This document shows positions 607-52,169 of a DNA stretch of 64,000 bases, piece after piece. Below the pieces are notes generated by a model. It saw nothing but the letters and a program-made list of their open reading frames with translations. It searched no databases and was not told where the DNA came from. This stretch comes from Chiloscyllium plagiosum (taxonomy: Eukaryota): contig NC_057726.1 of NCBI RefSeq assembly GCF_004010195.1, positions 69,302,608 to 69,366,607 on the forward strand, written 5' to 3'. The translations under genes were made by a program, and so were the position numbers. Within the stretch, counting starts at the first letter, position 1; each line of letters starts with the position of its first letter.

Positions 607-699
607 ATTCCAATGATAACATTTACCCAAAGATTTTCGGTTGTTTGGGAGGTGGATTGATATTATTCCTCATCGTGATGTACACACTCAGGCGAATTG
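607..699 (+). CDS. Gene A transmembrane exon (IgSF inhibitory-type receptor; ectodomain exons lie upstream of the window)
   Basis: cacag|AT...ATTG|gtaaga; 93 nt, phase 1-1; xSNDNIYPKIFGCLGGGLILFLIVMYTLRRIG, an uncharged hydrophobic core followed by RR; parallels the gene B TM exon. Confidence 0.85.
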
Positions 700-1457: not shown

Positions 1458-1501
1458 GAACATGCAGAAAACCAGAAGAGTGTAATCAGCACAATGAGCA
1501 G
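1458..1501 (+). CDS. Gene A cytoplasmic linker exon
   Basis: catttag|GA...GAGCAG|gtaggt; 44 nt, phase 1-0; GTCRKPEECNQHNEQ; same length, phase and GAGCAG end as the gene B exon at 49196-49239. Confidence 0.85.
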
Positions 1502-2739
1502 GTAGGTCACTGGCAGCTACTATTGAAAAAGTAGTTACACTGACATTTCAAGCAGCATCGCGATATTTTACCAGCTATCCCAACTGTTTCAATTCCCTGA
1601 ATGTCTGTGCGGTTAAAAAGTACCAAGAGACAGTACAGTACTGTCGTCCAATGCAAGGAGTCAGATTACAAAGGAAAAAAGATTGTGTTTCAAGTTAAAA
1701 CCATTAGCAGCATTGTTTGAATATAGTTAATCACTCTGGAGGAACACTTTAGATTAAAGGGTTTAGGGACTTAATGTGGCAGGAGAAAATGTATTAAGGA
1801 GATTGATTCAGAATACACTCTGTTGGATCAAATGGCATATTTCAGTGATGGGAATTGAAGTAAAATATATTGATAAGCAATAACTATAATTAAGAGATGG
1901 CTGACTAGCATTGAAAAAGATACTTTCATCTCCAAGTTGAAAGTATATCGGGTAGATATAATCACAGAAGAGACACAAAATATATTGCAACGCAATTCTA
2001 TTCCTCAAATAGTAAGGAATGAAATACTTATGTTGAGACTAAGAAATATATCTTCAATGCATTATTACATGGTAAAGCGTTAAATGGACGAATTAAGACG
2101 TAGCAGAATCACACGCATGAAGATTAAGGTGTGTGTAACGAGTTCAAATGTGACATTCAAAAAAAATACTGCATTTTAAGAATGAATAGGGCCAAATCTT
2201 GTAATGTCAATAACATGAACTGTGGCGAAATATTTCCAAATAGTTTTAATGAGAGCACAACCTCTAATCTGAATATGACGTGCTAAGAAGCACAATATCT
2301 TAAAATAATCGGAGTGTGGAAAACCCCATTACACCGTCAGGCACTACCGGCACACTCTGTATCCCCACCCGAAACCTGTGGCTGATGTGATGTCAGTACA
2401 CACCTTCCCCTCCCCCCCCCCCTCCCCCGCCCTTCATCATCCACCTCCTCCCTTTTCCCTGGCACCATGCCAAGAACCTAGGACCACTGAGTCGACACAA
2501 TGCCAACATGTGTAATCTTGTTTCCACTCTATTCACCATCAGATCTCAACAGATCTTCTGCTCACCTTGTACATTAACCTCCACTGCAATCCGTCTTCCA
2601 ATCCCCCGATTTCAGATAATAGTCAGTGTGTAGTGCAAATTAGAAACACATTGAATCGAGTATGTGTTTCACGAGGTTTGCAACATATCATAGGCACGTT
2701 GATGGATTGTGCTCTATGCTAACACTTCGTTTCTTCCAG

Positions 2740-2850
2740 ACTAGGTGTACAAAAACTAATGAGGAATTAACATACGCCACTCTAGGTTTCGCTAACCCCA
2801 GGGAAACTAAGAAGTCTCGACCTTCAGATGAGACCATGGTGTATGCGCAG
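2740..2850 (+). CDS. Gene A cytoplasmic ITIM exon 1 (read-through would stop at 2880)
   Basis: ttcttccag|ACT...GCGCAG|gtaaag; 111 nt, phase 0-0; TRCTKTNEELTYATLGFANPRETKKSRPSDETMVYAQ; canonical ITIM LTYATL. Confidence 0.85.
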
Positions 2851-4352
2851 GTAAAGAGAACATGTGCCAATCTAAAATAAATAGAGGAAGGGGAAACATT
2901 CGAGGTAAACACAGGCCTGGGAGCATCTGCGCAGAGGAAGAATTCGTGTATCATAGCAGTGACATTTTTATCAGAAAATAGAATCGAAATGTGAGTTTGT
3001 TTTTGTTCCAGCGAAACTGAAGGGATAGGAAGTATAAATGCAACATCCGGAATTGAAAAAGATTAAACAACAAAGTGTTTCATGATTCAAAGCCAGAAAC
3101 AATTGTAATCTGAATATTAAAGAATCAATAAAGGGAAGCAGATCAGGTGTAAAATCTGCACAGTCGTCATCTGAATGCTGCTTGAAGGTGTAACCAATGA
3201 AATAAGACCAAATTGACTCAGACAAAAGAAAACGAACTAAACAAACGATGTATTCAGAACAAAATTTAGGCATAGGTGTTGCTCCAAGGCTCTTGAGGTA
3301 GTACAGTGTACTGAGTTCTGACAGCTATAGAACATGAAATCAATCCTATTCCTCGAACTGGCACTGAACACCATTGCAATGCTGCAGTGACCTATGGGTA
3401 AAGCAGTCAGGGTGAGATTGGAGAAGAGAATTAAGTGACAAAGCACATGATAGTGAATGTGGGCTGACCAGGGGTGTTTTATTGTCCACTTGAAATGAAG
3501 CCATCTTTAAAACGCAACTCCAATTTCGTAAATTTTAAACAAATACTCGGAGTAGAACTTTTAAGACCTTCGATTTTTAAAAAAAGTAGGAGAAAACAGG
3601 ACAAATGCTTTACCCGCTTTGGAAAGGTTTCACAGGCAAATGAGGAAATGTCAGGTTTGACTGAAAAGTGGACCAGGGTGACGTGGAGGAAATAGCCCTT
3701 CTGTGGAATGTTAACAGTGGAGAGTCGAGGGAGATTGTGTGTAGTGGTGTCATTACACGGTAGCTGCAGGGAAAGACAGAGGAGCATTCAAATGATGGAG
3801 TAAAATACAAGGACAGCGGTGAGCAAGTCATACCGGCGGGAAGGTGGGAAAAGGGTGAAAAATAACGTTATGAAGTAGATCAGATTTAATGGCGACTCAT
3901 TGAACTACAGTCGGATAGCATACTCTTCCAGAGAAAGGAATACAGATCAGAAGCATATACATGCGAGTTACAAGCTGGGTCTAACGAATGATAAACTCAT
4001 AAGGTCTTACATTCTATGCGGTTTCCCGCATGCCTCAGACACCCTGAGCAGCGCGTAAAGTTGCATGGAGGCATACAAAGGGCTTTGAAAACGTGGCCAA
4101 ATACAGACATACATAGAGACTTGAAGAAGGACTTGAAATTTGATATTAGAACATGGTTTATATTGTGACATTCAGAAAAGAAGTGACAGCGATTTGATTA
4201 GAGCTGAACACAGAGCGAGGTGACCGGCAGCAGAAAGTGGAGTCGGCCCCTCGGCCCATTTGGATTCTGGATGTTGCAGAATGGTTAACGACGATGAATA
4301 AGGAATGTACGAGGGCGTTGTAAGACACACCAAGCTTGATAAACCATGTTAA

Positions 4353-6980
4353 AAATCACACAACACCAGGTTATAGTCCAACAGGTTTAATTGGAAGCAC
4401 ACTAGCTTTCAGAGTATCGCTCCTTCATCAGGTGGTAGTGGAGTGCTCAATCCTAACACACAGAATTTATAGCAAAAATTTACAGTGTGGTGTAACTGAA
4501 ATTATACGTTGAAAAATTGATTGCCTGTTAAGCCTTTCACCTGTTAGAATATCATGGTAGTTTCACTTCTTTCATGTGTAAGTCACAAAACCTTTTTTAA
4601 AAAAGTTGCATTCTCAGGCACAAAACCTTTTTTAAAAAAGTTGCATTCTCAGGTTAGCTGTTAACAATGGCGATAACTAGACCATATGTCGAAGGTGTTA
4701 GCCCCCTGTGTTCTCTGTCGATGCCGTGAGGTTTAGATTGATTCTAATCTAAAAAGTGAGATAACGGCGTTTTACATGAATGCATGCAGTTTTTGAGTAA
4801 AGTACGATGTAACCCTGAAAGTACAAATTCACCCCACAAAATATATGTGTGCATGTCTGTGTGTCTGTCTGTTTGGGTTGGGGGTTGTGAGTGTGAGAAA
4901 GTGTGTGTATATGTGTAGTGAGTGCAGAGTGTCTTAAGTCTGTGAGGGAGTGCATGAGCGTGTGTGCCTGGAACGGTGAGTGTGGGTGTCTGTGTGCTCG
5001 TCTGTGTAAATGTGTGTCCGTGTGTATGTGTGTATAGAAGTGCCTGTGTGTGTGTGTGTGTGTATATAGTGCAATGGTCATCACCTGTAATGTGACATGA
5101 ACTCAAGGTCCCGGTTGAAGCCCTCCCTACGGGTACCGAAATTAGCTATCAGCCTCTGCTTGGCCACTTGTCACTGGTGCCTGTCCCGGAAGTCTGCCTT
5201 GAAGGATGGTCACCTGAATGTCCGAGGTTGACTGTCCTGGACCGCTGAAGTGTTCCCCAACTGGGAGGGCACCCTCCTGTCTGTTGATTGTTGTGTGGTG
5301 CCCATTCATCCATTGCTGTAACCTTTGCTTGGTTTCCCCGATGTACCATGCCTATGGGCATCCTTGCCTGCAACGTATAAGATTGAGAACATTGGCTGAG
5401 TCACATGAGTACCTGCCATATACAAGGTGGGAGGTGTCCCCACGCGTAATGGTGGTATCTATGTCTACACTCTGACACTTCGTGCAGCGCCTACCATGAC
5501 AGGGTTGTATGGAGCTGCCCTGAGAGTCGGGCAGCTTGCTACGAACAACAATCTGTTTGAGGTTTGGCGGTTGTTTAAAGGCAAGTAGTGGAGGTGTGTG
5601 GAAGGTCTTGGTGAGGTGCACATCCTCATTGATAATGTGTTGCAGGTCACAAAGAACATAGCGTAGTTTCTCACCAAGACCTTCCCCACACCCCCACTAC
5701 TTTCCTTTAAACAACCGCCAAACCTCATCAGATCGTTGTTCGTAGCGAGCTGCCCGGCTCTCAGGACAACTCCATACAACCCTGTCACAGTAGGCACTGC
5801 AAGACGTGTCAGAGTGTGGACATGGATACTGCCATTATGCATGGGGACACTTCTTACCATGTATATGGCAGGTACTCATGTGACTCAGCCAACGTTGTCT
5901 ATCTTATACATTGCAGGCAAGGATGCCCGGATGCATGGCACATTGGGGAAACCGAGCAAAGGCTATGACAACGGATGAATTGGCACCACACAACAATCAA
6001 CAGACAGGGGTGTTCCCTCCCAGTTGAGGAACACTTTAGTGGTCCAGGACATTCGACCTCGGACCTTTGGGTGACCATCCTCCAAGGTGGACTTCGGGAC
6101 AGGCACCAGCAACAAATGGCTGAGCAGAGGCTGATAGCGAAGTTCGGTACCCACAGGGAGGGCTTCAACCGGGACCTTGGGTTCATGTCGCATTACAGGT
6201 GACCACTATTGCACTATGCAAACACACACAGATACTCCTATACACACCCATTCTCACACACACAGGTACTCCTATACATACATACACACGGACACACATA
6301 TACACAGACGCGAACACAGACACCCACACACACCCTTACAGACACACACACTCCCAAACTCACACATGCACCCCCTCATAGACTTAAGACACTCTGCACT
6401 CACGACACACACACACACTTTCTCACATTCACAACCCCCAACACAGCCAGACAAAGACCTAAATGCACATATATTTTGTGGAGTGAATTTGTACTTTCAG
6501 GGTTACATTGTACTTTAGTCAAAAACTGCATGCATTCATGTCGAACTCTTAGCTCAAAAACTGCATGAATTCATGCAAAACTCCATTTTCTCACTTTTTA
6601 GATTAGAATCAATCTAAACCACATGGTATGGACAGAGAACACAGGGGGCTAACACCTTCGACATATTGTCTAGCTATCACCATTGCTAACAGCTAACGTG
6701 AGAATGCAACTTAAAAAAAAAGGTTTTGTGACTGACACATGAAAGAAGTGAAACTATCATGATATACTAACAGATGAATTTTTCAATGTATAATTTCAGT
6801 TACATCACACTGTAAATTTTTGCTGTAAATTGTGTGTGTTAGGATTGAGCCCTCCACTACCACCTGATGAAGGAACGATGCCCCGAAAGCTAGTGTGCTT
6901 TCAATTAAACCTGTTGGACTATAACCTGGTGTTGTGTGATTTTTACCTTTATACACCCCAGTCCAACACTGCCATCTCTA
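4353..6980. mobile_element. Penelope-like retroelement: two degenerate 3' copies (GIY-YIG region plus 3' end) in inverted orientation, within a gene A intron
   Basis: 4353-5615 is the reverse complement of ~5670-6940. Translations PPLLAFKQPPNLKQIVVRSKLP...PCHGRRCTKCQ...YSCDSANV and LPVEEHFSGPGHS...EQRLIAKFGTHREGFNRD match the PLE linker and GIY-YIG C-terminus; frameshifted. Confidence 0.85.
4584..4653. repeat. 35-bp perfect tandem duplication inside the left Penelope arm
   Basis: cacaaaaccttttttaaaaaagttgcattctcagg x2. Confidence 0.9.
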
Positions 6981-7765
6981 ATTCATTGATATACCATGAT
7001 AGCAAACCTCCTGGGGAGAGTGAGCACAAGCAGCAGCAGTTAAACGCTGCATCGTCTGAACAAATGTGACAAATGTGGAGAAACTGGTAGACAGGAAGAG
7101 AATCTTCATTGAAGGCGGAATGTGCTGAAGTGGAGTCAAGGTTATTTGGGCTTGTCGTGATCTTACAAGATCATCGAACTGAAAGTTAATTCTGCTTCTG
7201 CCCACCTCAGAGGTTGAAAGCTTCCCTTTAAAAAGATATTTTCTCAGATATATGGGACTTCTCCGTTTTTCACTTCGTATTAAATTACACTGATCAGTAA
7301 CTTCATTTCCAGAATCAATTTATGAATAATCGTTTTGAAGCCATTGCTATAAGCATCTGAGTTTCTTCATATATGTGAAAGATACATTAGCGACTATTGA
7401 ATTTGTACAGATTAGAATGGATTACAAACTTGACACAGGAATTGTTGGAAACCACTGCATGATTTCACTTATCTCAACAGTTTCTACAACTGCAATTTAG
7501 AAAGCAATAGCTAAACCAACTTTATGTACAGAACAAAACCTGAATTGTAGATAAATATTGAAACAGGTACTTCAATATTTAATTATTTATTTTTCATGTA
7601 AAAATGTGCAAGGTTTTGGCAAATCGATCGGCGGGAACAATGAATAATTATATGCAGGAAATACCATATTTCACAGCCAATTGACCACCTCCATTGTTGT
7701 AGAATAACAATGCCCAAGTTGCATTTCAGAAGTCTGACTTCAGTCACCATTGTTGGTATTTACAG

Positions 7766-7873
7766 ACGAAACACGAAGTGACAGGGAACATGATATATGT
7801 TGACTTGGATTTGTCGAGTTCGGGGAGAACTGGGAGAACGCCCCAGAAGGAAACAAATGCAGTTTATGCGCAG
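7766..7873 (+). CDS. Gene A cytoplasmic tyrosine-motif exon 2, paralog of 2740-2850 (read-through would stop at 7903)
   Basis: tttacag|ACG...GCGCAG|gtacgg; 108 nt, phase 0-0; TKHEVTGNMIYVDLDLSSSGRTGRTPQKETNAVYAQ; same Y-Y spacing and identical TATGCGCAG|GTA end. Confidence 0.8.
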
Positions 7874-8499
7874 GTACGGCTGATATTTGTAAAATCGAAT
7901 TAAAGGAAATTAACACTTAATTAAAATTAACACAATGCAAATTGACATTTCACATTTGATTATATTAAAACGCATTTTTAAAAGTCCTAATAATGCAATC
8001 GTAAAATAGCATGATGTCATTTCAAACAGTCATTGTAAATAAGAACACTCAAGGCGATAGCTTTATTTTCACTCGTGGAATGTTTGTGGCGAGATACATT
8101 AAGTCCAAAGCTTTTAGATCAAGTGTTGCTGCATACATTCCAAATGGCGTGGAGAGATAATGAAACACATAGAAGGGACAGTTCCCTTCAGGATATTTTG
8201 GATTCACGGGTTTTAGAAGGAAAATAACAACGGAAGAATATAGTTTTACACAAAAACTGCAGGTACGTTTGCACTTCGAGTAAAGAATTTCCCCGAAATT
8301 TTGCCCTGGTCTTTATTGTAAAGAGAGCCGAACGTGCCCGACGTTCTACAGTACACCCACAACCCGTGTAAACACAGCAAGAGTTCCTTAAACTTCGACA
8401 ATTCCATAATAAAAAAAATAAGTTTCTGAACTGAACAGTTCCATTTCGAAGATTGAAAGTAACCGCAAATCATGTGCAGAACTCAACAGAAAGGTTAAA

Positions 8500-8783
8500 C
8501 ATCATACAACACAAGGTTATAGTCCCAACAGGTTTATTTGAAGCATTAGCTTTCGGAGCGCTGTTCCTTCATCAGGTGGTTGTGAACAATTGGGATTGTC
8601 AAACGTGCGTTAAAAGGTACGGGGAAAGAGAGATATTAATAAAAACAAGTCAGTGTCGGACGTCAATCCTGATGAAGGAGCGGCGCTCCGAAAGCTAGTG
8701 CTTCCAAATAAACCGGTTGGACTATAACCTGCATTGTGTGATTTCTAACTTTGTACACCCCAGTCCAACACCGGCTCCTCCAA
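8500..8783. mobile_element. Short Penelope-terminus inverted-repeat element with a hammerhead-like core at 8669-8697
   Basis: Arms match the termini of 4353-6980; CTGATGA-A-GGAGC-ggc-GCTCC-GAAA-GC-TA. Confidence 0.75.
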
Positions 8784-9173
8784 ATTAGAGAGCACAGAAA
8801 TCTTGCAGTTACGTTAGAACAGAGAAGGCTGATGAGATAGATTTTTTTAAAAAAAGCAGTTCAGTCAAGATTCGAAGATCGAACAATTGAAAGAATGTCC
8901 AATGTCGATAGCATTTATGCAGAAGTTTGGATAAAAGGAAATTGTACTGGCATGTTCACCTTTTGATGAGTTAGATTGGTTAAAATATTTTACTACGTTA
9001 CCATTTTTTCATCTTTCTAGACTCTCAAAGGATCTACATTATTTTGATATCTTTAAAGAAGAAAATGTTAACGTCTGTGATGTTCTCACTACTTTGAATA
9101 TAAACCATTTAAACGGATTTTTGCATAGTATTTCAAAAACGCTCTCACAATAGAAAATGTTTCTGTGTTTCAG

Positions 9174-9245
9174 ATCAAACGAGGGCAATCTGACAATGGA
9201 GCTGTGTACACCGATTCATCTATCCCCGGCAGTCATACAACCTAA
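9174..9245 (+). CDS. Gene A terminal coding exon
   Basis: ttctgtgtttcag|ATC...ACC TAA; IKRGQSDNGAVYTDSSIPGSHTT*; the first Ile completes VYAQ|I; AATAAA at 9612-9617. Confidence 0.7.
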   Translation: MKRGQSDNGAVYTDSSIPGSHTT

Positions 9246-18520: not shown

Positions 18521-20154
18521 ATGACTGTTTCAGTTGAAAGGGAATAGACCCAGGCGACAGTATCTGAGGGAAGAAATTCATCCACAGTTTTGCAAAATTA
18601 CGACAGAATGATGTGAGGAAGATAACAGCTTAATATTGATAAGAAACATAAACACCTCTGTGATACAATCTGTGCTTCTATCTGCTAAGTGTATTTGTAT
18701 TTGCCCAGTGTAGTGGCTTCTTTTCACCACTGCATACACTGGACTTTTTTCTTGGTATTTAGGTTTCGATGATGCACCGTAGTCATTGAAGGTAAGCTAG
18801 CCTGCTTTATGTCATGCTCTGTTTTGTCTGAAAAACAGCATTGAGACTGATTTACCATTCATTTGAATCATTCTAGATGAAAATTACACAAATCTATTTT
18901 TGACATTTTCTTGAAATCAACTCATTCTAATGAATGAACACATTATTTATACATGTGAGCTGAAATGTACCTCTGTACATAATGCGATTTCTTCCAGTTT
19001 TTTGGCATGATGCCATCCTCAGAACCTACTAGGTTAAGAGCAGAGTATGTCAGCTTATCCTCAGGCATCTCTTGCTATTTCTAGAAAATCAAGATTTAAC
19101 ATTCATTTGGTTATTTCATTTTGGAGTCAAGAGACAAGCATACATTCTTAACGCAGGCAATTTGTTTCTTGTAGTGACTTTGCTAACACTTCATTACAAT
19201 TATGATACTTTACAGTTCCTCACTCTGAACTGTTTGTTGCCAGGAACATCACATCGAATCACAATAAGCAAACCTTATTGTTTCACTATTATTAATATTA
19301 ATATAGTTTTAATTCAAAGTTTCCAGAAAAATGCTGCAATTATGCAGTGTTCTGAAGAAAAGGTTTCGTGCATCAGTTCAATTTAATTACGTTTTTGAAT
19401 TCTGATGGGTGACTTGCTGTTTTATTACATTCTGCTACAGATTGAGTATACAGTACAGTTTATTAAATGAGGCAAAAATAAACGTGTTTGCGTTTGCTTA
19501 ATAACTATAAAAAAGAATCACAGGTCGCACTGCTTCAACATAAAATTACAAGTGGCAAATACTTGAAATGAGTTAGTAAAGTCTTTCATTCGGAGGGTAT
19601 ATGATGCAGTATTTAATTGAAAATTCCCTCAAATTAAATCAGTAAATCAGTTTGAGAAAAGGACAAACTGTACTTACAACTGCTAATAGAAAATTAGTTT
19701 CAGAACCACCCTGTTCCCTTATGAATAATGGAAGGTATTCTATTCTATTTCAGTAGGCCATCTAAATAAAGGCATTGAAGTCTTAATTGAAGATGAAGTT
19801 GCAATGTATTTTCAAAGAATTTGCAAGGAACTCTTGATGCCAGATAGCATGTCTTAAAGTAAATTATTGATGTTTTAAGTTAGAATATGTACCATTTATT
19901 TAGGGAGGTACATGTTCAGCTTAGTGACAATGAAGAAATGTAACAAAGACAGTGTGATTTTGCTTAAAATGTAAACCACAATATTTCAGTGCTCTAAAAT
20001 GTGCCTTTTGGTCTTCTGTGAGGTATTTCTCAATCATAGATATTTTCTCTTTTGATCCGATCCACTGCTCGTGAAACAATGAAACACAGATTAAGCATTG
20101 CATCTGGCTATGAGAGGATTTTATTCTATTACCTATAACAGTGCAGCTTCAATA

Positions 20155-24784: not shown

Positions 24785-24956
24785 AATCCAAAGATGTACA
24801 GGTCAGGTGAATTGGCCATGCTAAATTGCCCATAGTGTTAGGTAATGGGTAAATGTAGGGGTGTGGGTGGGTTGCGCTTTGGCGGGTCGGTGTGGACTTG
24901 TTGGGCCGAAGGGCCTGTTTCCACACTGTAATGTAATCTAATCTAATCTAATCTAA
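24785..24956 (+). mobile_element. 5'-truncated HE1 SINE abutting the broken end of the gene C V exon
   Basis: gatgtacaggtcaggtgaattggccatgc...(tctaa)n tail. Confidence 0.85.
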
Positions 24957-25218
24957 TGTTCCAGTATCCTGGACAGTTACATTCAGAAGATTAAGGCAGG
25001 CTACTCGTTTAATGACATGGAAGAACTTGCTGCTACCCTCCTGCAGAAAGGATTTGTTACCTTCTCTCCGCCAGTAAGCAATAACATTTGAATCGTCGAT
25101 TTTGAGGGAGAAAAGACAAAGCAAGAAAACTGTTGAACCTCTCTGCGCTGTTAATCATTTCAGATCTGGGTTCACTTTGGCCAAAATACTCACAGCAGCT
25201 ATCAACCAAGGAAACACA
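24957..25218 (-). pseudogene. Gene C (pseudogene) V-domain exon, truncated before YYC
   Basis: Minus: ...AAVSILAKVNPDLK*LTAQRGSTVFLLCLFSLKIDDSNVIAYWRREGNKSFLQEGSSKFFHVIKRVACLNLLNVTVQDTGT; B-strand Cys, YW and L-x-NV-x-x-QDTG align with the gene B V domain; in-frame TGA; cut by a SINE. Confidence 0.85.
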
Positions 25219-42722: not shown

Positions 42723-42777
42723 ATGTTAGCACTTGATCTGTTGAATTACCTTTCGACATTAGGCATTATTTACATAG
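42723..42777 (+). CDS. Gene B leader exon
   Basis: gcaacATG...ATA G|gtatat; MLALDLLNYLSTLGIIYI(A); phase 1; 180-nt intron. Confidence 0.75.
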
Positions 42778-45700
42778 GTATATGCATTTAAGACTTTCAG
42801 ATCAGTAGAAGTGGAATAAGAACTGTGTGACGATCGCTGATACTTAATGTTTATTGTAGTTTCCGCTTTAGTTACATTATACAATAACGGTTTTATTTCT
42901 ATTTAATGCTCCTGAATTATCTCTGTTGATAATCTCTTTTGTGCTCATTTCTGACAGCCTCAGACACTGTGACCCCTTTCTCCTTGCATCAGGTCCCACA
43001 GCGTGTGACCGGAGTGAAAGGCGAAAACATTTCCATTAATTGCTCTGCGTCTTTATTCATGCCGAATGCAATGTTGGATGTTTATTGGTGGAAGAAAGGG
43101 CAACGCTCGACTTTTAGTATGACGAGAGAGAAAACGAAAATAGCGATGCCTTTTCACCAAGGATCTTCCGAGTTCCGCCTGATCAATGTGAGTTTCCAAG
43201 ATTCTGGGGTTTATTACTGCGGCGTTAAAAAAGGGCCAGGAATGATGTCTAATGGCACTGGGACTGAGGTCACAATATACGGTGAGTGATACTGAGGAGC
43301 TAAAGGGCTCTTTGAAATTAATCAGCGAATACCAGTGAATAAGCAAATGAAAATTTCTCTCAGTGCCCATCTGTCATTGTATTTGCAGCGAATGCTTTCT
43401 GGTGAAATAGCCGCATTTATTGCAGGAGTGTTCACATTTGAATGCCAGACTCAACCAATAATTTCTTTCTGAGGGATTATATTTTTGAAGCACCCCTTTT
43501 TAATGATTTTTTAGGCTGAGTAATGTTGGCATTGGCACTATTGGTTGCTTACCATTTAGAGAGTTTTCTTCTTCCCATTTCCCAATGCCTTCTTCCAACA
43601 TGATTGAAATTTTAATCCTACAGCAATAAACAATATGTAATATATTTCTAAGACATAATGGTGCCTGACTTGAAAGGGGTTGGAGGTCCTGGTCTACTCA
43701 TGAGGATGTAGTCCTTTTGTTTCCAAGTTACAGTACTTATATGGTGGTTGATGCTAAAGGCTAGGGACTCTAGTGGTGCAGCTGTAGTATCCTTACCTTT
43801 GTGACAGGCTATGACTTTCCAGCATCTGCAGTCATTACTATCTCCTTTGAGCCATTTAGCTTTGGTTCAAGTCCCACCTGTTCCAGAGGTATATAATAAC
43901 ATTCGAGTGCAAGGAGGAGAAAATGACGACTACAGATGCTGGAGATCAGAGTCGAGAGTGAAAGAAAAACAGGTCAGGCAGCATTTGCTCGCTCGGAGAA
44001 AGTTTCAGGCATAAGCCCTTCTTCAGGAATTCTGCCTGAAACGTCGATTATCATGCTTCTTGGATGCTGCCTGACCTGCTGCACTTTTCCAGCAACACAT
44101 TTTTCAGCATCTGCTCGCTCCACAATATCCCAATACAAGTTGATTAGGAAATATCTTGATGCACAAGCCACCTTGGTGAGTGGAGGCTCATTACTACCTC
44201 ACAGCGCTGGGGACCTGGGTTTGATTCCCGTGTTGACTGGCCGTCTGTATGGAAATTTCACATTCTACGTGTGCCTGTGTGGGTTGCCTCCAGGTACTCT
44301 GGTTGCCTCCCACAGTCCAAACATGGTGCAGGTTAGGTGAATTGGCTGTGCTGAATTGCCCACAGTGTCCAGGGATGTGCTAGGTGCTTTGGCTTTGGTT
44401 AATGCTGGGTTATCTGGATGGAATGCTCTTTGGAGAGTTGGTGTGTACTCGATGAGCTGAACAGCCTGCTTCCATACTGTCGGGATTCCATGGTGGCATG
44501 GATATTGCAGTTGGTGCAGACACGTGTAAAATTTGAAGGGTATGGCTGTTTAACATGGTGTGTGGAATGTAATTTTGTAAATTATGTTTTTTTTCCATGA
44601 AATCCAGTCCAGAATTGTTGCAACTAATTCCCCAAGACAATTAGAGAGCTTTCTATTAGATTCCTGGTTTGTAGGTAACGGAGAGAGTTTGACGAGATAA
44701 CAGTTCACCACTTGCTGCAGAATACTCCTGCTGCATTAATGTCAGCAACTGTGTGACAATCAATATTGGGCCTGAAGAAGGGCCTGTGCCCGAAACGTCG
44801 AATCTCCTGTTCCCTGGATGCTGCCTGACCTGCTGTGCTGTTCCAGCAATAAAGTTTCAACTTTGATCTCCAGCATCTGCAGACCTCACTTTCTCCTTTG
44901 TACCGGTGATACCCTCTCTTATTAGCAGTGCTACACCCCCTCCTATTTTTCAAGACAGTAACATTCTCATAAACAAACCCTTTGGTAATAAGGTAGATTC
45001 AAACACAGACTCTTACAGGCAGGACTCCAATCCAGGAGGGAAATGCAACAAGAGAGATTTCAGACCAAGGCAGTTCGCAATCATTTACTGAAGCTTGCAA
45101 CTCCGATGTCGTGTGACTGCCACAGCTAAAAAAAAGAACTAGAACCTGAACTGGGAGAACTGGACACTCCCTTTCCAGTGTTAAACTGTCTTGAAAAAAT
45201 ACTGATTCAGGCTGGCTCCCTAGCCGCTTCGGCACTTCTACCTTTATAACCTCTCTTCAAACAAAAACCCAGAAGAAAATAAGCTTTTTAAAGTGACAGC
45301 ATTGTCACAACAGTGATGATAGATTTATGGATGTTTGTTTGGTCTTCGTGACATTGAGTTCCTGACATAAATTCCTGCAGTGAGGGTTGAAATGTTACAT
45401 GGGCAGGTTCTGTTTAATTGGGTCATAAGTTAGGGACAGTGTAGGCACAAGCTTTTCCCTCATCGGGTTTAGGTAAAAAAAAATAAAGAAATATGGTATG
45501 ATCAGATTTAAATAATTTAATTAGGAGAACGTGAGGACTGCAGATGCTGGAGGTCAGAGTCAAAAAGTGTGGCGCTGGAAAAGCACAGCAGGTTAGGCAG
45601 CATCCGAGGAGCAGGAGAATCGATGTTCCGGGCATAAGCCCTTCATCATCCAGTGCCACACTTTTTGACTTCAAACACTTCAAGCTAAAAAATCACACAA

Positions 45701-48700
45701 CACCAGGTTATAATCCAACAGGTTTATTTGGAAGCACTAGCTTTCGAAGCATTGCTCCTTCATTAGGTGGTTGTGGGGTATAAGATCCTAAGACACAGAA
45801 TTGACGCAGACACTTCAAGCTATTTATGGTGATTGAAACTCCAACTCTGAAATGATTTGCCTTCCAGGCATGTAATCTTGCTTCTGTTGTCTTTGGTATG
45901 GCATGAAACGTGTTTTCAACTTATTTCCTTTGGCTTATTCACAGTGCCTCCAACTCCAATAACGATTACTCGACTGTCCTCTCCATTCCTTAAACTTCTC
46001 TGTACGACAGCTAGCTTCTTCCCAGAAGAATTTAACCTTACCTGGTATGAAAATGACAGAAAAATTACATCTGGAATAAATACTACAAAGTTTCAGGAAA
46101 AGGAGGGATTACATCAAGTTTCCAGCTCCTTATATCCTGTGGAGATCGGGTTGGTTTATACTTGCCAAGTTTCTCATGTTTCACTAGTGGACCCAGCCAA
46201 TGACAGCTACTTGGTTTCAGATCAGGGTAAGAGTCTCAGCTTCTTCATATTTCCCTGAACTATAATTTGTTAGATTTAAGGGGGCAATATCAGCACTCTA
46301 ATTTCTGTTGCAGATTATTGGAGACAGAGTAACTACATGATTGACAAGAGATTGACTTCAAGTTTTTTTTAAAAAATCATTGGATAGCATGGAAGGAAGC
46401 CACTTTGTTTATTTTGCATTGTCATGTTCTTTGTCATGCTATTCTATTTGGCCCACGCATCCATTTCATCGCAATAAATTCTCCCTTTAGGTTTTATTCC
46501 AATTCTTTTTCAAATGTGATCATTGAAACATCTTTCCTGCTTTTAGAAACAAAAGATTCTGAATTATAACACATTATATAAGTACAGCTGCCCCCATTCC
46601 CTTGCCAAACGTTGCCTGTTTGTGTGCCAATTACTCTAAATACACACCCTTTGATAACCAACCATTCCACCACTCTTTTTCTTTACTGTATTTAAATATT
46701 GATTTTAAACTACTATATCAATTTGTCTTAATCATTGCAGCACCATGAAGAACAGTGCTGGCTTCTCCACTGATTTTACAGAATGAAAATCCCTTGTGTC
46801 ACTCTGTTCGTATGTTCGTATGTGCATATGCACGCCTATGTACTATGAGGATATTCTGTTTTGGCAACCTATTCAGATTCTATAATTTAGTCATGCTTAA
46901 TCCCACTCCAATCTCCATTATTCTTCAGAATCAAATGAATCCCTTTAATTTAAAATTCTATTCACCAAGTCTCTTGCATTTTCTCAACATGTCTGTGTTT
47001 TGAATATCCCATAATAAGTACAAAGAGGCTATATATATATATATATATATATATATGCCAAGCCACATCATTCATATGTATCTCTAACAATGCTCCTCAT
47101 ACAGAGAAATGTCTCTGATGGCTCTCCAACCAAAAGAAAAACAACTGCCTGAGTCCTTCTCTAGCATACAGATGCATGAAGAGAGACAGGCAGAAGTGTT
47201 GAGGTATATTAAGCCCCCGCATATATTCACAAAATCAGCATGAACAAATCTTACATGCATATAACATAAACATTAATAAAGTTAAACATGATAATTATGC
47301 TGAACAAAATGCTAAAATGATCAGAAAATTGAATTGTGTGTTCTTTAATCCAAGTTTGCTCAGTTAATACTGTCATAGAACCTCTGGATAAATGGAGAGT
47401 TTATTAGATTGGTGAGAGGCGATGGGTTTGATGTGTCAGTGTGGCCTGTTATCTGTTGTTGCTTATTATTTAGCATCATTTGCTCTTTAAATGCTAATGT
47501 TCACATTCTCTGTCATCTTTAGGTAAAAAAGGAAATGGTTTCTCCTATGCCTTAGCATTCAGCTGGATAGCAGGGGGCTTTATAATTTTGGTTCTAGCAA
47601 TTGTTGTCAGGCTGTACAAACTAGAGAGATCTCATGGTAAGACTGATTTAAAATTGTCTTTTAACATTAAGTGTACTGCAATGGTGCGGAAGTAGAGGGG
47701 TAGGTTATGACATCAACAGGCCACTGTAATGAGATAGTTTACCACACTGATAGGGCTCATCAGGATAACTTCAACAAACCATAACTGAATTGTAAGATTT
47801 TTATGTGATAAATGACAATGAGAAATAGAATGTGTATGTTAAATATGTTTGATGCTGGATTGAATAAAGAAGACGCAGCAACCATGAATCAGAAAAACAA
47901 ATTAGTAAAACAAGACAGAAATATTTCAGCTACTCAACTGATCAGACAACATCAATGGAGATAAAAGCAGGGGTAATACTTCAGGATATGAACATAGGAG
48001 GTATGATTAGTAAATTGCAGATGACACCAAAATTGGAGGTGTGGTGGACAGTGAAGAAGGTTACCTCAGAGTACGACGGAATCTTGATCAGATGGGCCAA
48101 TAGATCAAGGTGTGATAGATGAAGTTAAATTTAGATAATTGTGAGCTGCTGCACATTGGAAAAGCAAATCAGGCAGGTCTATACATTTAATGCTAAATTC
48201 CTGGGGAGTGTCGTTGAACAAAGAGACCTTGGAGTGCAGGTTCATAGTTCCTTGAAAGTGGAGTTGCAGGTCGATAGTATGGTGAAGAAGGTGTTTTATA
48301 TGCTTGCCTTTCACGTCAGAGCATTGAGTATAGGAGTTGGGAAGTTATGTTGCAGCTCTGTGGGACATTGGTTAGGCCATTTTTGGAATAGAGTGTGCAG
48401 TTTTGATCTCCCTGCTATAGTAAGGACAGCCTGAAATTTGAAAGCGTTCAGAAAAGATTTACAAGGATTTTGCTAGGGATGGAGGCTTTGAGCTCTCGGG
48501 AGAGGCTGAATACACTGGGACAAATTTCCCTGGAGTATCAGAAGCTGAGGGCCTTACAGTAGTTTATAAAATGATGAGGGGCTCACAAACAAGATTTTTT
48601 CCCAAGGGTTCGGGAGTCCAAAGCAAGCTGGCATTGTTCTAAGGTGAGAGGTGAAAGATTTAAAAGGGACCTAAGGAGCACGTTTTAATGCAGAGAGTGG

Positions 48701-51700
48701 TGCATGTATGGAATGTGCTGCCGGAGGAGGTGGAACAGTTGCACCATTTAAAAGGCATTTGGATGGGTATATGAATAGAAAGGGTTTGGAGGTGTATGGG
48801 CCAAATACTGGAAAATGGAACTAAGTATTTAGGATATCTCGTCAGCATGGAAGACTTGGACTGAAGGGTCTGTTTCTGTGCTGTATATCTTTTGGACACT
48901 ATGATTGTATGACACATTTTTAGAACATTAACTCTGTTTTCATTTCCACAAATAATGTCTGACCTGCTAAATATTTCCAGGAATTTCTGTCTTTATGTAA
49001 TACTTCCAGCATTTACTGTATTTTACTTTTGCGAAAAGTAAAATTGATCACATCTCAACCAGCGGTAGAATTGGGTATTAATTTTTTATTGGTGATTATG
49101 CTGCTCATACTGCTCAAATTTTGGGTTTTATCTTTTTTCACAGACATACCTGACATTTTGAAATTCATTATTGGTGTACATTTGTTCTGTGGCAGGTGAT
49201 GCAGTTGCTGAAGAAATTGACAGCCGGGTTGAGGAGCAGGTCAGTTTGGTCTGTTTTTATAAAACCCAGGCGACTTTTGCAGTGCACTTGATGCTTTCAC
49301 CTGTCGTAGGTATATCTATTTTCCTGGTAGGTCAGAAAATCACCAACTAATTGTGGAAAATGTGCCAAACAGAATTCATTCATGTAACCCTCAGAATCCT
49401 GAGGGAATATTATAAATCCCATTGTTTCCAATGCTCATTCGGCATTTATCTAAATTCTTTACAAGGCATAGTCTGCTTGTTTTTGTAATAAGAATGATAA
49501 TCCCACCTGTTAATATCTGAACGGCTGCTGAGTGTTGACTGCTGCTGCTCTGTATCAGGGATTTGACTGATACAGATTAGTTCAGATCTTTAGCAGAAAA
49601 ATGCATCTTCAAAATTAAGCAAACTCAGAACTTGAATATCCAATAACCAGTAAGTGGACATGCGCCACTCCTTACCTCATCTGGTCAGGATGCGGAATGT
49701 AACTGTGAATTAGAATTAGCATTCAGATAAATGACATCAGCTCAAAGTTAGTGGTCGCAACTGTCCTCAGTAGAAAGTTATTGATTGGCCAATGTCATTT
49801 AAGGAGCAAAAACAGATATTACTGGAAAAATTCAGCAGGTTTGGCAGCATCTGTGGAGAGGAAACAGAGTTAATGTTTTGGGTTGAATGCCCCTCCTTTG
49901 GAACTTTTCAGAACTTGTTCAGAAGGGTCACTGGACCTGAAACATTAACTTTTTTTTGCTACAGATGCTTCCAGGCAAGGATCAGGCAGGACTTTGGAGA
50001 GTTACAAGTGGCCAGGAAGGAACTGTACATAGATTCCTGAACGTTGCAACCCAGGTTGATAGGATTGTTAAGGAAGCAAACGGTGTCTGAGCTTTTATTG
50101 GTAGAGGGATTGAGTTTCAGAGCCAGAAGGTCATGTTGCAGCTGTTCAAAACTCTGGTGCCTCTGCACTTGGGGTATTGCATATAGTTCTCGTTATAGGA
50201 AGGCTGTGAAAGCTTTGGAATGGATTCAGAGGTGATTTATTATGATGTTGCCTGGTATGGAAGGAAGGTCTTATGAGGAAAGGCTGAGGCACTTGAGGCT
50301 ATTTTCATTCAAGAGAAGAAGACTTTGAGGGACTTAATTGAGATGTATAAGATAATCGGAGGGTTAGATAGGGTGGACAGTGAGAGCCTTTTTCCTCGGA
50401 TGGTGATGGCTAGCATGAGGGTACATAGCTTTAAATAGAGAGGTGATCAATATAGGACAGATGTCAGAGGTAGTTTCTTTACTCAGAGTAGTAGGGGCAT
50501 GGAATGCCCTGTTTACCATTGTAGTAGACTCGCCGATTTGAAGGGCATTTAAAAGGTCATTGGATATACATATGGATGAAAATGGAATAGTGTAAGGTAG
50601 ATAGGCTTCAAGGATGTGGGTTTGCTCGCTGAGCTGGAATGTTCAGTTTCAGATGTTTCATCACCATACTAGGTAACTTTTTAAGTGAGCCTCCAGATGA
50701 AGCATTGGTGTTGTAGCCCGCTTTCTATTTATATGTTTGGGTTTCCTTGGATTGGTGATGTCATTTCCTGTGGTGACATCATTTCCTATGGTTATGTCAT
50801 TTCCTGTTCTTTTTCTCAGGGGTTGGTAAATGGGATCCAAGTCAATGTGTTTGTTGATAGAGTTACTGTTGGAATGCCATGCTTCTTGGAATTTTTGTGT
50901 GTGTCACTGTTGGCTTGTTCTTGGATGGATGTGTTGCCCCTGTCAAAGTGGTGTCCTTCCTCATCCGTATGTGAGAGTGTGTCGTGTCTTTTTGTGGCTA
51001 GTTGATATTCACGTATCCTGTGGCTAGTTTTCTGCCTGTTTGTCCAATGTCATATTTATTACAGTTCTTGCAAGATATTTTGTAAATAACATTAGTTTTT
51101 CTTATTGTCTGTATCGGGTTTTTCTAGTTCATGAGCTGCTGGTTTAGTGTGTTGGTAGGTTTGTGGACAACCATGATACCAAGAGGTCTGCGTAGTTTGG
51201 CAGTCATTTCTGAGATGTCTTTGATGTAGGGAAGACATAGGGAAGACCATATACAGACTTTTCTCATTGAAGCGAAGAAGAATGAGAGATGACTCGATAG
51301 AGGTGTTCAAGATGATGAGAGGCACAGATAGAGTGAATAGTCAAAGACTTTTCACTAGGGCAGAAACGGCTATCACAAGAGGGCATAATTTTAAGGTGAT
51401 TGGAGGCCGGTTTAGAAGAGATGACAGAGGTGGGTCCTTTACACAGAATGATTGGTGCGTGGAATGCACTGCCAGGGGTGCTACTAGAGTCAGATACAGT
51501 AGGGACATTTAAGCGACTAATGGAAATGCACATGGATAATAGTAATATGAAAGGTGTGCAGGTTAGTTTGATAAAAGAATAGGATAAAAGGTCAGCACAA
51601 CATCAAGGACCATAGGGCTGTACTGTGCTGTACTGTTCTATGTTCCATGCTGCAAAACCTGCTGAGTTTTTCTCACAATTTCTATTTTTGTTTCTGATTT

Positions 51701-51995
51701 CTAGCATCAGCAGTTCATTTAATGCCATTCAAGGCTCTGTGTGCTGTATTTGCTGACCCCAAATATGTTTTTTTGTTGATGTTTACCTGAACCAATTTTG
51801 CTTTTGTTTCAATTTGGTAAGTAACTGATATTCCTCACAAATTCTCCACAGGTCATCCATAAAGGAAAAGTGGAGGGTCCAACTTATGCTGATCTCCACT
51901 TCAATGAACACAGGAAAATGTGGAAACCCAGAAGTGAAAAAGAGGCTGTTGTTTATACAAACATAAATTACCATTCTGTCCAGGACCAACTCTGA
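42723..51995 (+). CDS. Gene B: complete 320-aa type-I IgSF receptor, leader-V(J-like)-C1-TM-ITIM (SIRP-like / antigen-receptor-like); join(42723-42777,42958-43281,45945-46226,47523-47636,49196-49239,51852-51995)
   Basis: All introns GT-AG; phases 1,1,1,1,0 are consistent; 963 nt open to TGA. Confidence 0.9.
42958..43281 (+). CDS. Gene B V-set Ig exon with a J-like G strand
   Basis: ctgacag|CC...TAC G|gtgagt; GENISINC...VYWWK...LINVSFQDSGVYYC...NGTGTEVTIY. Confidence 0.95.
43917..44112. mobile_element. PLE-derived palindrome (gene B intron 2)
   Basis: Inverted arms of the gatgctggagatcagag / ctgcctgacctgctg family. Confidence 0.75.
44165..44490 (+). mobile_element. HE1 V-SINE (old)
   Basis: cctcccacagtccaaacatggtgcaggttaggtgaattggc. 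Confidence 0.8.
44770..44897 (+). mobile_element. Single-arm PLE-derived element with a hammerhead-like core at 44772-44799
   Basis: CTGAAGA-A-GGGC-ctgt-GCCC-GAAACGTC. Confidence 0.75.
45522..45809. mobile_element. Two adjacent PLE-derived elements; the second (45688-45809) has a 13-bp TSD
   Basis: acacttcaagcta at 45675-45687 and 45810-45822; the second matches the 4353 Penelope terminus. Confidence 0.75.
45945..46226 (+). CDS. Gene B C1-set Ig exon
   Basis: ttattcacag|TG...CAG G|gtaaga; LLCTTASFFPEEFNLTW...YTCQVSHVSL. Confidence 0.95.
47030..47056. repeat. (TA)n microsatellite
   Basis: tatatata... run. Confidence 0.95.
47523..47636 (+). CDS. Gene B transmembrane exon
   Basis: tcatctttag|GT...CAT G|gtaaga; GKKGNGFSYALAFSWIAGGFIILVLAIVVRLYKLERSH; no charged residue in the hydrophobic core. 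Confidence 0.9.
47988..48900 (+). mobile_element. CR1 LINE 3' region
   Basis: ADDTKIGGVVDSEEG...; LGSVVEQRDLGVQVHSSLKV. Confidence 0.9.
49196..49239 (+). CDS. Gene B cytoplasmic linker exon
   Basis: ggcag|GT...GAGCAG|gtcagt; 44 nt; GDAVAEEIDSRVEEQ. Confidence 0.85.
50040..50610 (+). mobile_element. CR1 LINE 3' region
   Basis: Typical CR1 ORF2 end (tatgaggaaaggctgagg..., tggaatgccctg). Confidence 0.85.
50612..51240 (-). mobile_element. Second Penelope-like family (GIY-YIG 3' part plus degenerate hammerhead)
   Basis: Minus translation IGQTGRKLATG...LATKRHDTLS; a matching piece lies at ~11140-11238. Confidence 0.7.
51262..51650 (+). mobile_element. CR1 LINE 3' end
   Basis: KRRRMRDDSIEVFKMMRGTDRVNSQRLF. 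Confidence 0.85.
51852..51995 (+). CDS. Gene B ITIM exon with stop codon
   Basis: ctccacag|GTC...CTC TGA; VIHKGKVEGPTYADLHFNEHRKMWKPRSEKEAVVYTNINYHSVQDQL*. Confidence 0.88.
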   Translation, partial: VIHKGKVEGPTYADLHFNEHRKMWKPRSEKEAVVYTNINYHSVQDQL

Positions 51996-52169
51996 AACAG
52001 GTATGCGATAACAGCAACATGAATTAATTCATTGACTTGTGCCAGCAATTAGTCATTGAGTGTAGCTAAACTGAGTTAACTTTTGGAATCCGGTGAATGT
52101 CAGAGTTTTAAGGTTTAAGTTTAATAGTTAATCTCTTACTGAAGTCTAGCCTTGTTTACATTTGTAAGT

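Follow-up and report, generated by a model that had tools for sequence, protein, structure and literature searches.

Two-tyrosine tail exons of gene A, a member of a V-C1 receptor gene family in Chiloscyllium plagiosum

Gene A belongs to a gene family of Chiloscyllium plagiosum predicted to encode receptors with one V and one C1 immunoglobulin (Ig) domain. Its transmembrane (TM) and tail exons lie at the beginning of the analysed stretch of 64,000 nucleotides (nt), C17:69302608-69366607 in the genome assembly, hereafter referred to as the window; its leader, V and C1 exons fall outside. The tail includes two exons, modules 1 and 2, each specifying two tyrosines. We propose that the tail exons, probably spliced in order, make up an old tail design that is standard in the family, here in a V-C1 receptor that is likely inhibitory. 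The exon boundaries were confirmed, both module donors are used in one transcript fragment, and the design recurs in paralogs and in other cartilaginous fishes.

Tail exons of gene A and their splicing

The following features were assigned (window positions; Tyr1 to Tyr5 are the tail tyrosines, X7 is the sequencing run described below, and a bar within a sequence marks an exon end):

607..699, + strand: TM exon of gene A, phase 1-1, hydrophobic core uncharged (translation; joint 699>1458 in the X7 contig)
1458..1501, + strand: juxtamembrane exon of 44 nt, phase 1-0, which fixes the module reading frame (translation and X7 contig)
2740..2850, + strand: module 1, 111 nt, Tyr1 LTYATL and Tyr2 MVYAQ, phase-0 donor (donor used in the X7 contig)
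2784..2785, + strand: AG of an internal (cryptic) acceptor, closing the codon for the +3 Leu of Tyr1 (joint 1501>2786 in the X7 contig)
2851..2881, + strand: module 1 read-through extension, Val plus 8 codons plus TAA (2878-2880), AATAAA at 2876-2881 (sequence only)
7766..7873, + strand: module 2, 108 nt, Tyr3 MIYVDL and Tyr4 AVYAQ, phase-0 donor (entire exon matched by the X7 contig)
7874..7904, + strand: module 2 read-through extension, Val plus 8 codons plus TAA (7901-7903), ATTAAA at 7899-7904 (sequence only)
9174..9245, + strand: predicted last coding exon, Ile as +3 of Tyr4, Tyr5 AVYTDS 11 codons in (sequence and paralogs)

The exon coordinates and translations proposed for 2740-9245 in an earlier note, made from the letters alone, were all borne out when the letters were rechecked. 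Both modules are directly preceded by AG, have a length that is a multiple of 3 and end in TATGCGCAG|GTA, and TATGCNCAGGT has only two matches on the + strand of the window, namely the ends of modules 1 and 2. The two share 10 of about 37 residues, and their local alignment score was equalled by 21 of 5000 shuffles. They are thus related beyond chance, though only distantly, as expected of the paralogous phase 0-0 tyrosine modules that the note had recognised. The 2740 acceptor is predicted to be strong (12 of 15 pyrimidines and a branch-point-like site). The last exon is preceded by AG, opens with Ile and ends in TAA, its tyrosine stands at the spacing of a module start, and it was found in four paralogs, each beginning ATC; the 44-nt short exon is kept in all five close paralogs.

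Transcript evidence came from one contig of run X7 (247 nt, depth 2.2, no mismatch), a run whose RNA origin is a guess. Contigs of this run can prove presence, not absence, and 2740-2783 and 9201-9245 lie outside their cover. No run recorded as RNA contains the stretch. In run X1 the introns were evenly covered, as in DNA, and the single-cell runs X5 and X6 gave no reads on the exons in the roughly 2% and 6% of them that were read. The X7 contig contains the GT-AG joints 699>1458 and 1501>2786, then joins 2850 to 7766 and matches all of module 2 exactly to 7873, its last 9 letters being unplaced. The 2850>7766 junction that the note had proposed as a check is therefore present, and the status of both modules as exons is further supported by homologous proteins that share their boundaries. 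Both donors were spliced, and no read-through of the intron at 2850 or 7873 was found in this contig (one fragment). A depth of 2.2 would correspond to one fragment read twice if the reads were 2x150 (read length is not on record), and the contig is probably one molecule.

The predicted junction products were all reproduced: YAQ|T results from the 2850>7766 joint, YAQ|I from a joint to 9174, and YAQV, with a stop at 2880 or 7903, from read-through. We compared these products with the ITIM (immunoreceptor tyrosine-based inhibitory motif), (I/L/V/S)xYxx(L/V), and the related switch motif (ITSM), TxYxx(V/I), as given in an excerpt of PMC2832619. Tyr1 (LTYATL) alone of the five tyrosines fits the strict ITIM consensus. 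The others fail in every splice form, owing to Met at -2 (Tyr2 and Tyr3), Ala at -2 (Tyr4) or Ser at +3 (Tyr5), and consequently the exchange of Thr for Val or Ile at +3 makes no consensus site in gene A. The same exchange would create one in family members with Thr at -2, of which there are many. Homologs P0030, P0041, P0063 and P0108 also carry a short Y-(S/T)-(D/E) motif at the C-terminus, resembling that of Tyr5 (window 9204-9221), and Tyr5 may be a conserved non-ITIM site, not a decayed ITIM.

In the mechanism that we propose, the short exon would be joined to module 1, module 1 to module 2 and module 2 to the last exon, so that the +3 residue of each module's second tyrosine (Thr for module 1, Ile for module 2) would come from the exon that follows and would not be encoded by the donor. 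Once its tyrosine is phosphorylated, the xYxxL motif opening each module would bind SH2 domains of the SHP-1/SHP-2 type, as suggested by the consensus and by SIRPalpha and CEACAM1. With Thr after it, Tyr2 would form a site that is weak or not an ITIM, and Tyr4 followed by Ile would be the putative closing site. The Val encoded on read-through would be a by-product of the donor GT. Motif number would vary mainly among paralogs, through duplication, deletion and mutation, with skipped or frameshifted splice forms playing a minor part.

The module family in C. plagiosum and other cartilaginous fishes

At least 43 matches of the C1 exon were found in the genome, 39 of them on C17 in two clusters. 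An iterated profile yielded 50 module matches in the 1.40 Mb fetched around the C1 matches; 35 had a recognisable second tyrosine and were kept, and the 15 without one were left out. A module was called internal when another module start lay within 6 kb downstream; the remaining, last-found group may miss downstream modules. The +3 codon of the second tyrosine starts with GT in 15 of the 17 internal modules versus 7 of the 18 last-found ones, and it is GTA in 12/17 versus 1/18 (Fisher p 8e-5; paralogs are not independent). Both internal modules without GT are mutated copies of donor-bearing paralogs. An intron at Yxx| is thus the family design. GTN codes only for Val, so read-through at any phase-0 Yxx|GT gives Val and carries no extra information. 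The idea that this Val is selected information was accordingly discarded, and with it the significance that the earlier note had attached to a donor encoding the +3 residue.

Motif number differs between the close paralogs, but these differences are fixed in the DNA and not set by splicing, as the note had proposed for the number of motifs. In three of the five, a block from about 2206 to 7482, with module 1 inside, is missing and TAA stands at the Tyr4 codon. The fourth has lost 7807-8700 including the module 2 donor, and module 1 joined to its last exon would read TVYAQ|I. The alignment of the fifth to gene A ends at 1775. From these deletions and tyrosine-to-stop changes we conclude that motif number has been varied at the DNA level.

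Other family members were noted nearby. Gene B is complete (window 42723-51997, + strand: leader 42723, V 42958-43281, C1 45945-46226, TM 47523-47636, short exon 49196-49239) and carries one terminal module, beginning at 51852 (PTYADL ... VVYTNI); no intron interrupts it at its second tyrosine, and a GT stands just past the stop. A minus-strand relic of another family gene (window ~18700-19080 and 24950-25170) comprises a V exon into which a repeat has inserted and two tail modules with frameshifts. At C17:70.62-70.72 Mb (L008-L017) the gene A region is duplicated in inverted orientation, with sequence gaps (5902 N); one copy there ends after the short exon.

The closest database match of the C1 exon was a Chiloscyllium punctatum fragment (94%). 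Full-length relatives were found in Heptranchias (e.g. XP_067853506.1), Heterodontus (XP_067906068.1), Mustelus, Mobula (XP_072135200.1), Hypanus and Callorhinchus (XP_007902825.2). Their automatic names are inconsistent between species: most are SIRPalpha-like ('tyrosine-protein phosphatase non-receptor type substrate 1-like'), and 'tapasin-related', 'NCR3 ligand 1-like' and 'Ig lambda-like' also occur. These V-C1 models share with gene A the domain order, the two-tyrosine modules and the YAQ|T junction; gene A differs by its weak leader donor and by Met or Ala at the -2 position in three motifs. In most homologs, two first motifs are ITIM-like. Junction residues could be counted in 21 of 87 matches shorter than 520 residues, all of them gene models. 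At the inner junction, the +3 residue was T in 7, I in 4, V in 2, A in 1 and N in 1 (n=15), and the last motif had L, V or I at +3 in 15 of 19. Thr being the commonest inner residue, YAQ|T is the conserved product, not the telling loss of a hydrophobic +3 residue that the note had seen in it.

The orthologs of gene A are likely P0011 and P0185. P0011 (Heptranchias) was the best full-length match to the gene A V exon (59% V identity), and its best tblastn match back was the gene A subfamily. Its first unit aligns with module 1 (score 66, against 56 for its second unit), its second unit matches module 2 at 20 of 36 residues and its third unit aligns with the last exon. In the Heterodontus ortholog, module 2 ends in AVYAQ followed by Leu. 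Modules 1 and 2 score only 31.5 against each other, and each resembles its counterpart in another shark more than it resembles the other module, which disposes of the candidate of a recent duplication intermediate. The comparison with elasmobranch orthologs suggested by the note thus told against its own idea of a preserved exon-duplication intermediate: both modules, together with a third unit, are present in the likely ortholog of the sevengill shark, and the chimaera has the same design, with two- and three-module tails. Judged from these alignments, the module duplication is old and was not caught in the act, and the two-tyrosine exon design is common to sharks, rays and a chimaera.

Searches farther afield returned little. 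Among 205 candidates, the only longer proteins matching the V exon were two lungfish proteins. Module 1 had no match in the PDB, where the V exon and the V profile gave generic Ig matches, and the best tblastn match of the leader was set aside as a chance minus-strand match.

Two further observations concern the homologs. In P0011, P0041, P0048, P0063, P0068, P0091 and P0108, two extra residues (often L-Q) stand between Yxx and the next unit; after these the next tyrosine is again 11 residues in, and an acceptor read in frame also yields L-Q. Intron loss, a shifted donor or a tandem acceptor may each account for the extra residues. Another group (P0027, P0037, P0058, P0077, P0103, P0120 and P0177) has a TM of another kind, with an Arg at its centre, and a short tail that lacks tyrosine modules. 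These models are possibly activating partners, which would make the family one of paired-receptor type.

Alternative readings of the tail exons

Four observations weigh against an in-order, inhibitory tail. The form entered at 2740 was not seen, the sole fragment entering at 2786; splice variation is present, since two of eight RefSeq isoform sets alter tail modules; the strict ITIM consensus is matched by only one tyrosine in five; and the leader donor is very weak, so that the full receptor may be poorly made.

The last of these points leads to the tentative alternative that gene A is a transcribed but decaying copy, whose cryptic acceptor and non-consensus motifs result from relaxed selection. 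The exons upstream of the window are:

L007:590-638 (C17:69293197): leader of gene A, donor CAG|GTCCCG
L007:831-1142: V exon of gene A, VJ-type, with a GxGT-type strand within the exon end
from L007:2361: C1 exon of gene A

The leader donor, CAG|GTCCCG, arose from an 8-nt deletion just after the leader GT and scores 0.5, compared with 4.3-9.7 in ten family leaders (generic, untrained weights). If the leader intron stays unspliced, the reading frame runs into a stop within intron 1, and no Met is available in the V exon. The deletion is common to gene A and the paralog at C17:70647843, and the donor is entirely lost in two other paralogs. All five close paralogs carry lesions, the sole transcript fragment is out of frame, and the changes specific to gene A (11 non-synonymous, 3 synonymous) give a ratio of the two classes per site (pN/pS) of about 1.1. 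On the other side, all eight exons (leader-V-C1-TM-short exon-module 1-module 2-last exon) are open and in phase. Since gene A and the paralog sharing the deletion split, their exons have kept 90-96% identity, compared with ~82-87% for introns, although gene conversion could explain part of it. The ratio comes from 14 changes only, and immune receptors often diversify. Decay of this one copy is in any case compatible with the in-order design proposed for the family.

A regulated splice switch seems fairly improbable. Here, module skipping and internal acceptors just after the first tyrosine of a module would yield tails that are short or lack tyrosines, with their ratio under control, as in CEACAM1-L/S. 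The one gene A fragment does use an internal acceptor: the 1501>2786 join leaves out Tyr1 and continues in another frame, through 26 residues without tyrosine, to a stop 92 nt before the 7873 junction. Transcripts with a stop more than 50-55 nt upstream of the last junction are subject to nonsense-mediated decay, and this form is accordingly predicted to be degraded. The AG at 2784-2785 arises from a synonymous base (CTA in gene A, CTC in the closest paralog), and the candidate of a conserved cryptic acceptor was rejected because the paralog lacks it.

Parallels were sought in RefSeq isoforms of eight genes, taken only from the matches listed; these are gene models whose read support is not visible. 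Two sets alter tail modules, five show no module change and one has a form without modules but mixes sequences. Exon skipping, as the earlier note had envisaged, is annotated in a horn-shark (Heterodontus) family member, in which XP_067905924.1 skips module 1 exactly compared with isoforms X1/X2; the modules are all phase 0-0, hence skipping preserves the frame. Isoform X3 of the Heterodontus ortholog (XP_067906070.1) retains Tyr1 and ends in the +1 frame of module 2, to which all 13 codons compared conform (none of 2000 shuffles exceeded 8), from which we infer an internal acceptor. This site and the 2786 acceptor are three codons apart and in different modules, which argues against conservation, and the X7 contig is possibly a single 247-nt fragment read twice. 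Skipped or frameshifted, motif-changing splice forms are nevertheless likely to occur at some level.

Donor read-through, the remaining route invoked by the note, was encountered neither in the transcript fragment nor in the eight RefSeq isoform sets. In concrete form, the idea would make the modules composite terminal exons: the donor would be ignored, the motif would be completed by Val, and cleavage of the RNA would take place at a poly(A) hexamer overlapping the stop. This is very unlikely. It was suggested by the two read-throughs of gene A, both Val plus 8 codons plus TAA; at an identical offset their stops overlap AATAAA and ATTAAA, a setting found for only 7% of the TAA triplets in the DNA that was fetched. 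In addition, 14 of the 28 nt after GTA match between the modules (p ~0.03, found after looking), family members with Thr at -2 would gain the ITSM consensus TxYxxV, and three chimaera UniRef models of one cluster (P0044, P0155 and P0156) end by read-through. Against this, both donors are strong (8.0 and 8.4) and were used in the fragment; a hexamer lies within 80 nt in only 4 of 17 internal modules, three of them being the two of gene A and its paralog; read-through lengths in other modules are scattered from 1 to 32 residues; the Met and Ala residues at -2 leave gene A without a strict ITIM or ITSM even after read-through; and the chimaera models run about 50 unmotif-like residues further.

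Comparison with known receptors and significance

By analogy of layout, the gene A family resembles SIRPalpha and CEACAM1. SIRPalpha (CD172a, SHPS-1), which binds CD47, has, like gene A, a VJ-type V domain, C1-set sequence and an uncharged TM. It has four main tail tyrosines in two pairs, compared with five, paired and including one strict ITIM, in gene A, and a single last exon encodes all four, unlike the separate module exons of gene A. In mammals, NSFL1C marks the SIRP cluster; genes with its SEP domain were found on C20 and C4 and none on C17 (a single marker). [quoted passage not shown] The SIRPalpha layout of V plus two C1 domains (PMC8281132, in part) differs from that of gene A and its aligned homologs, which have one C1 between V and TM. 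In the PDB, a full-length family profile matched a SIRPalpha chain (2wng, E 1.9e-29) at rank 5 and SIRPgamma at rank 11, with an IgA1 heavy chain and shark UrIg2 ranking above SIRPalpha, while a V-only profile returned no SIRP among the best 60 of 81. On these comparisons, membership of the gene A family in the SIRP family is not established.

CEACAMs are alike in a different respect. In their ITAM-like (activation motif) tails, YxxL motifs are split by phase-0 introns (excerpts of PMC2832619 and PMC5112662), and skipping of CEACAM1 exon 7 yields a short tail without any tyrosine sites (excerpt of PMC11646291). The division of YxxL motifs by phase-0 introns is shared with gene A, and a splice form dropping tail tyrosines is a possible further parallel, but CEACAMs have an ectodomain of another family and their split motifs are of the activating type. 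The CEACAM1-L/S switch is also regulated, with both proteins made, whereas the gene A form is known from one contig, likely one molecule, with decay predicted.

NKp30/NCR3 has a V-only ectodomain and a charged TM. It shares with gene A a VJ-type, non-rearranging V exon, while gene A also encodes a C1 domain and a tail with tyrosines, and its TM carries no charge. None of 45 matches of major histocompatibility complex (MHC) class I lies on C17, and all those on large contigs lie on C37; given the location of the gene cluster on C17, the candidate of an NCR3 cluster was dropped.

No description of the family or of its tail exon design turned up in searches of an open-access library, which leaves out most subscription papers. 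It is conceivable, though in our view improbable, that this shark, ray and chimaera V-C1 family carries swappable two-tyrosine cassettes, with signalling tuned by skipping, internal acceptors and composite-terminal-exon read-through (turning TxYxx|T into the SLAM/PD-1-type TxYxxV), and that it is an ancient exon-modular forerunner of the four-tyrosine tail of SIRPalpha. Should regulated splicing be real, sharks would have a means of setting inhibitory strength through exon cassettes.

If the plain, in-order reading is true, a SIRPalpha-like four-tyrosine tail can arise by duplicating one phase 0-0 exon. This would be useful for the history of inhibitory receptors, yet unsurprising, as phase-0-split motifs and ITIM-dropping splice forms are known from CEACAMs. 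The design would also characterise a family of considerable size, with about 40 genes per genome, whose members are at present inconsistently named in databases.

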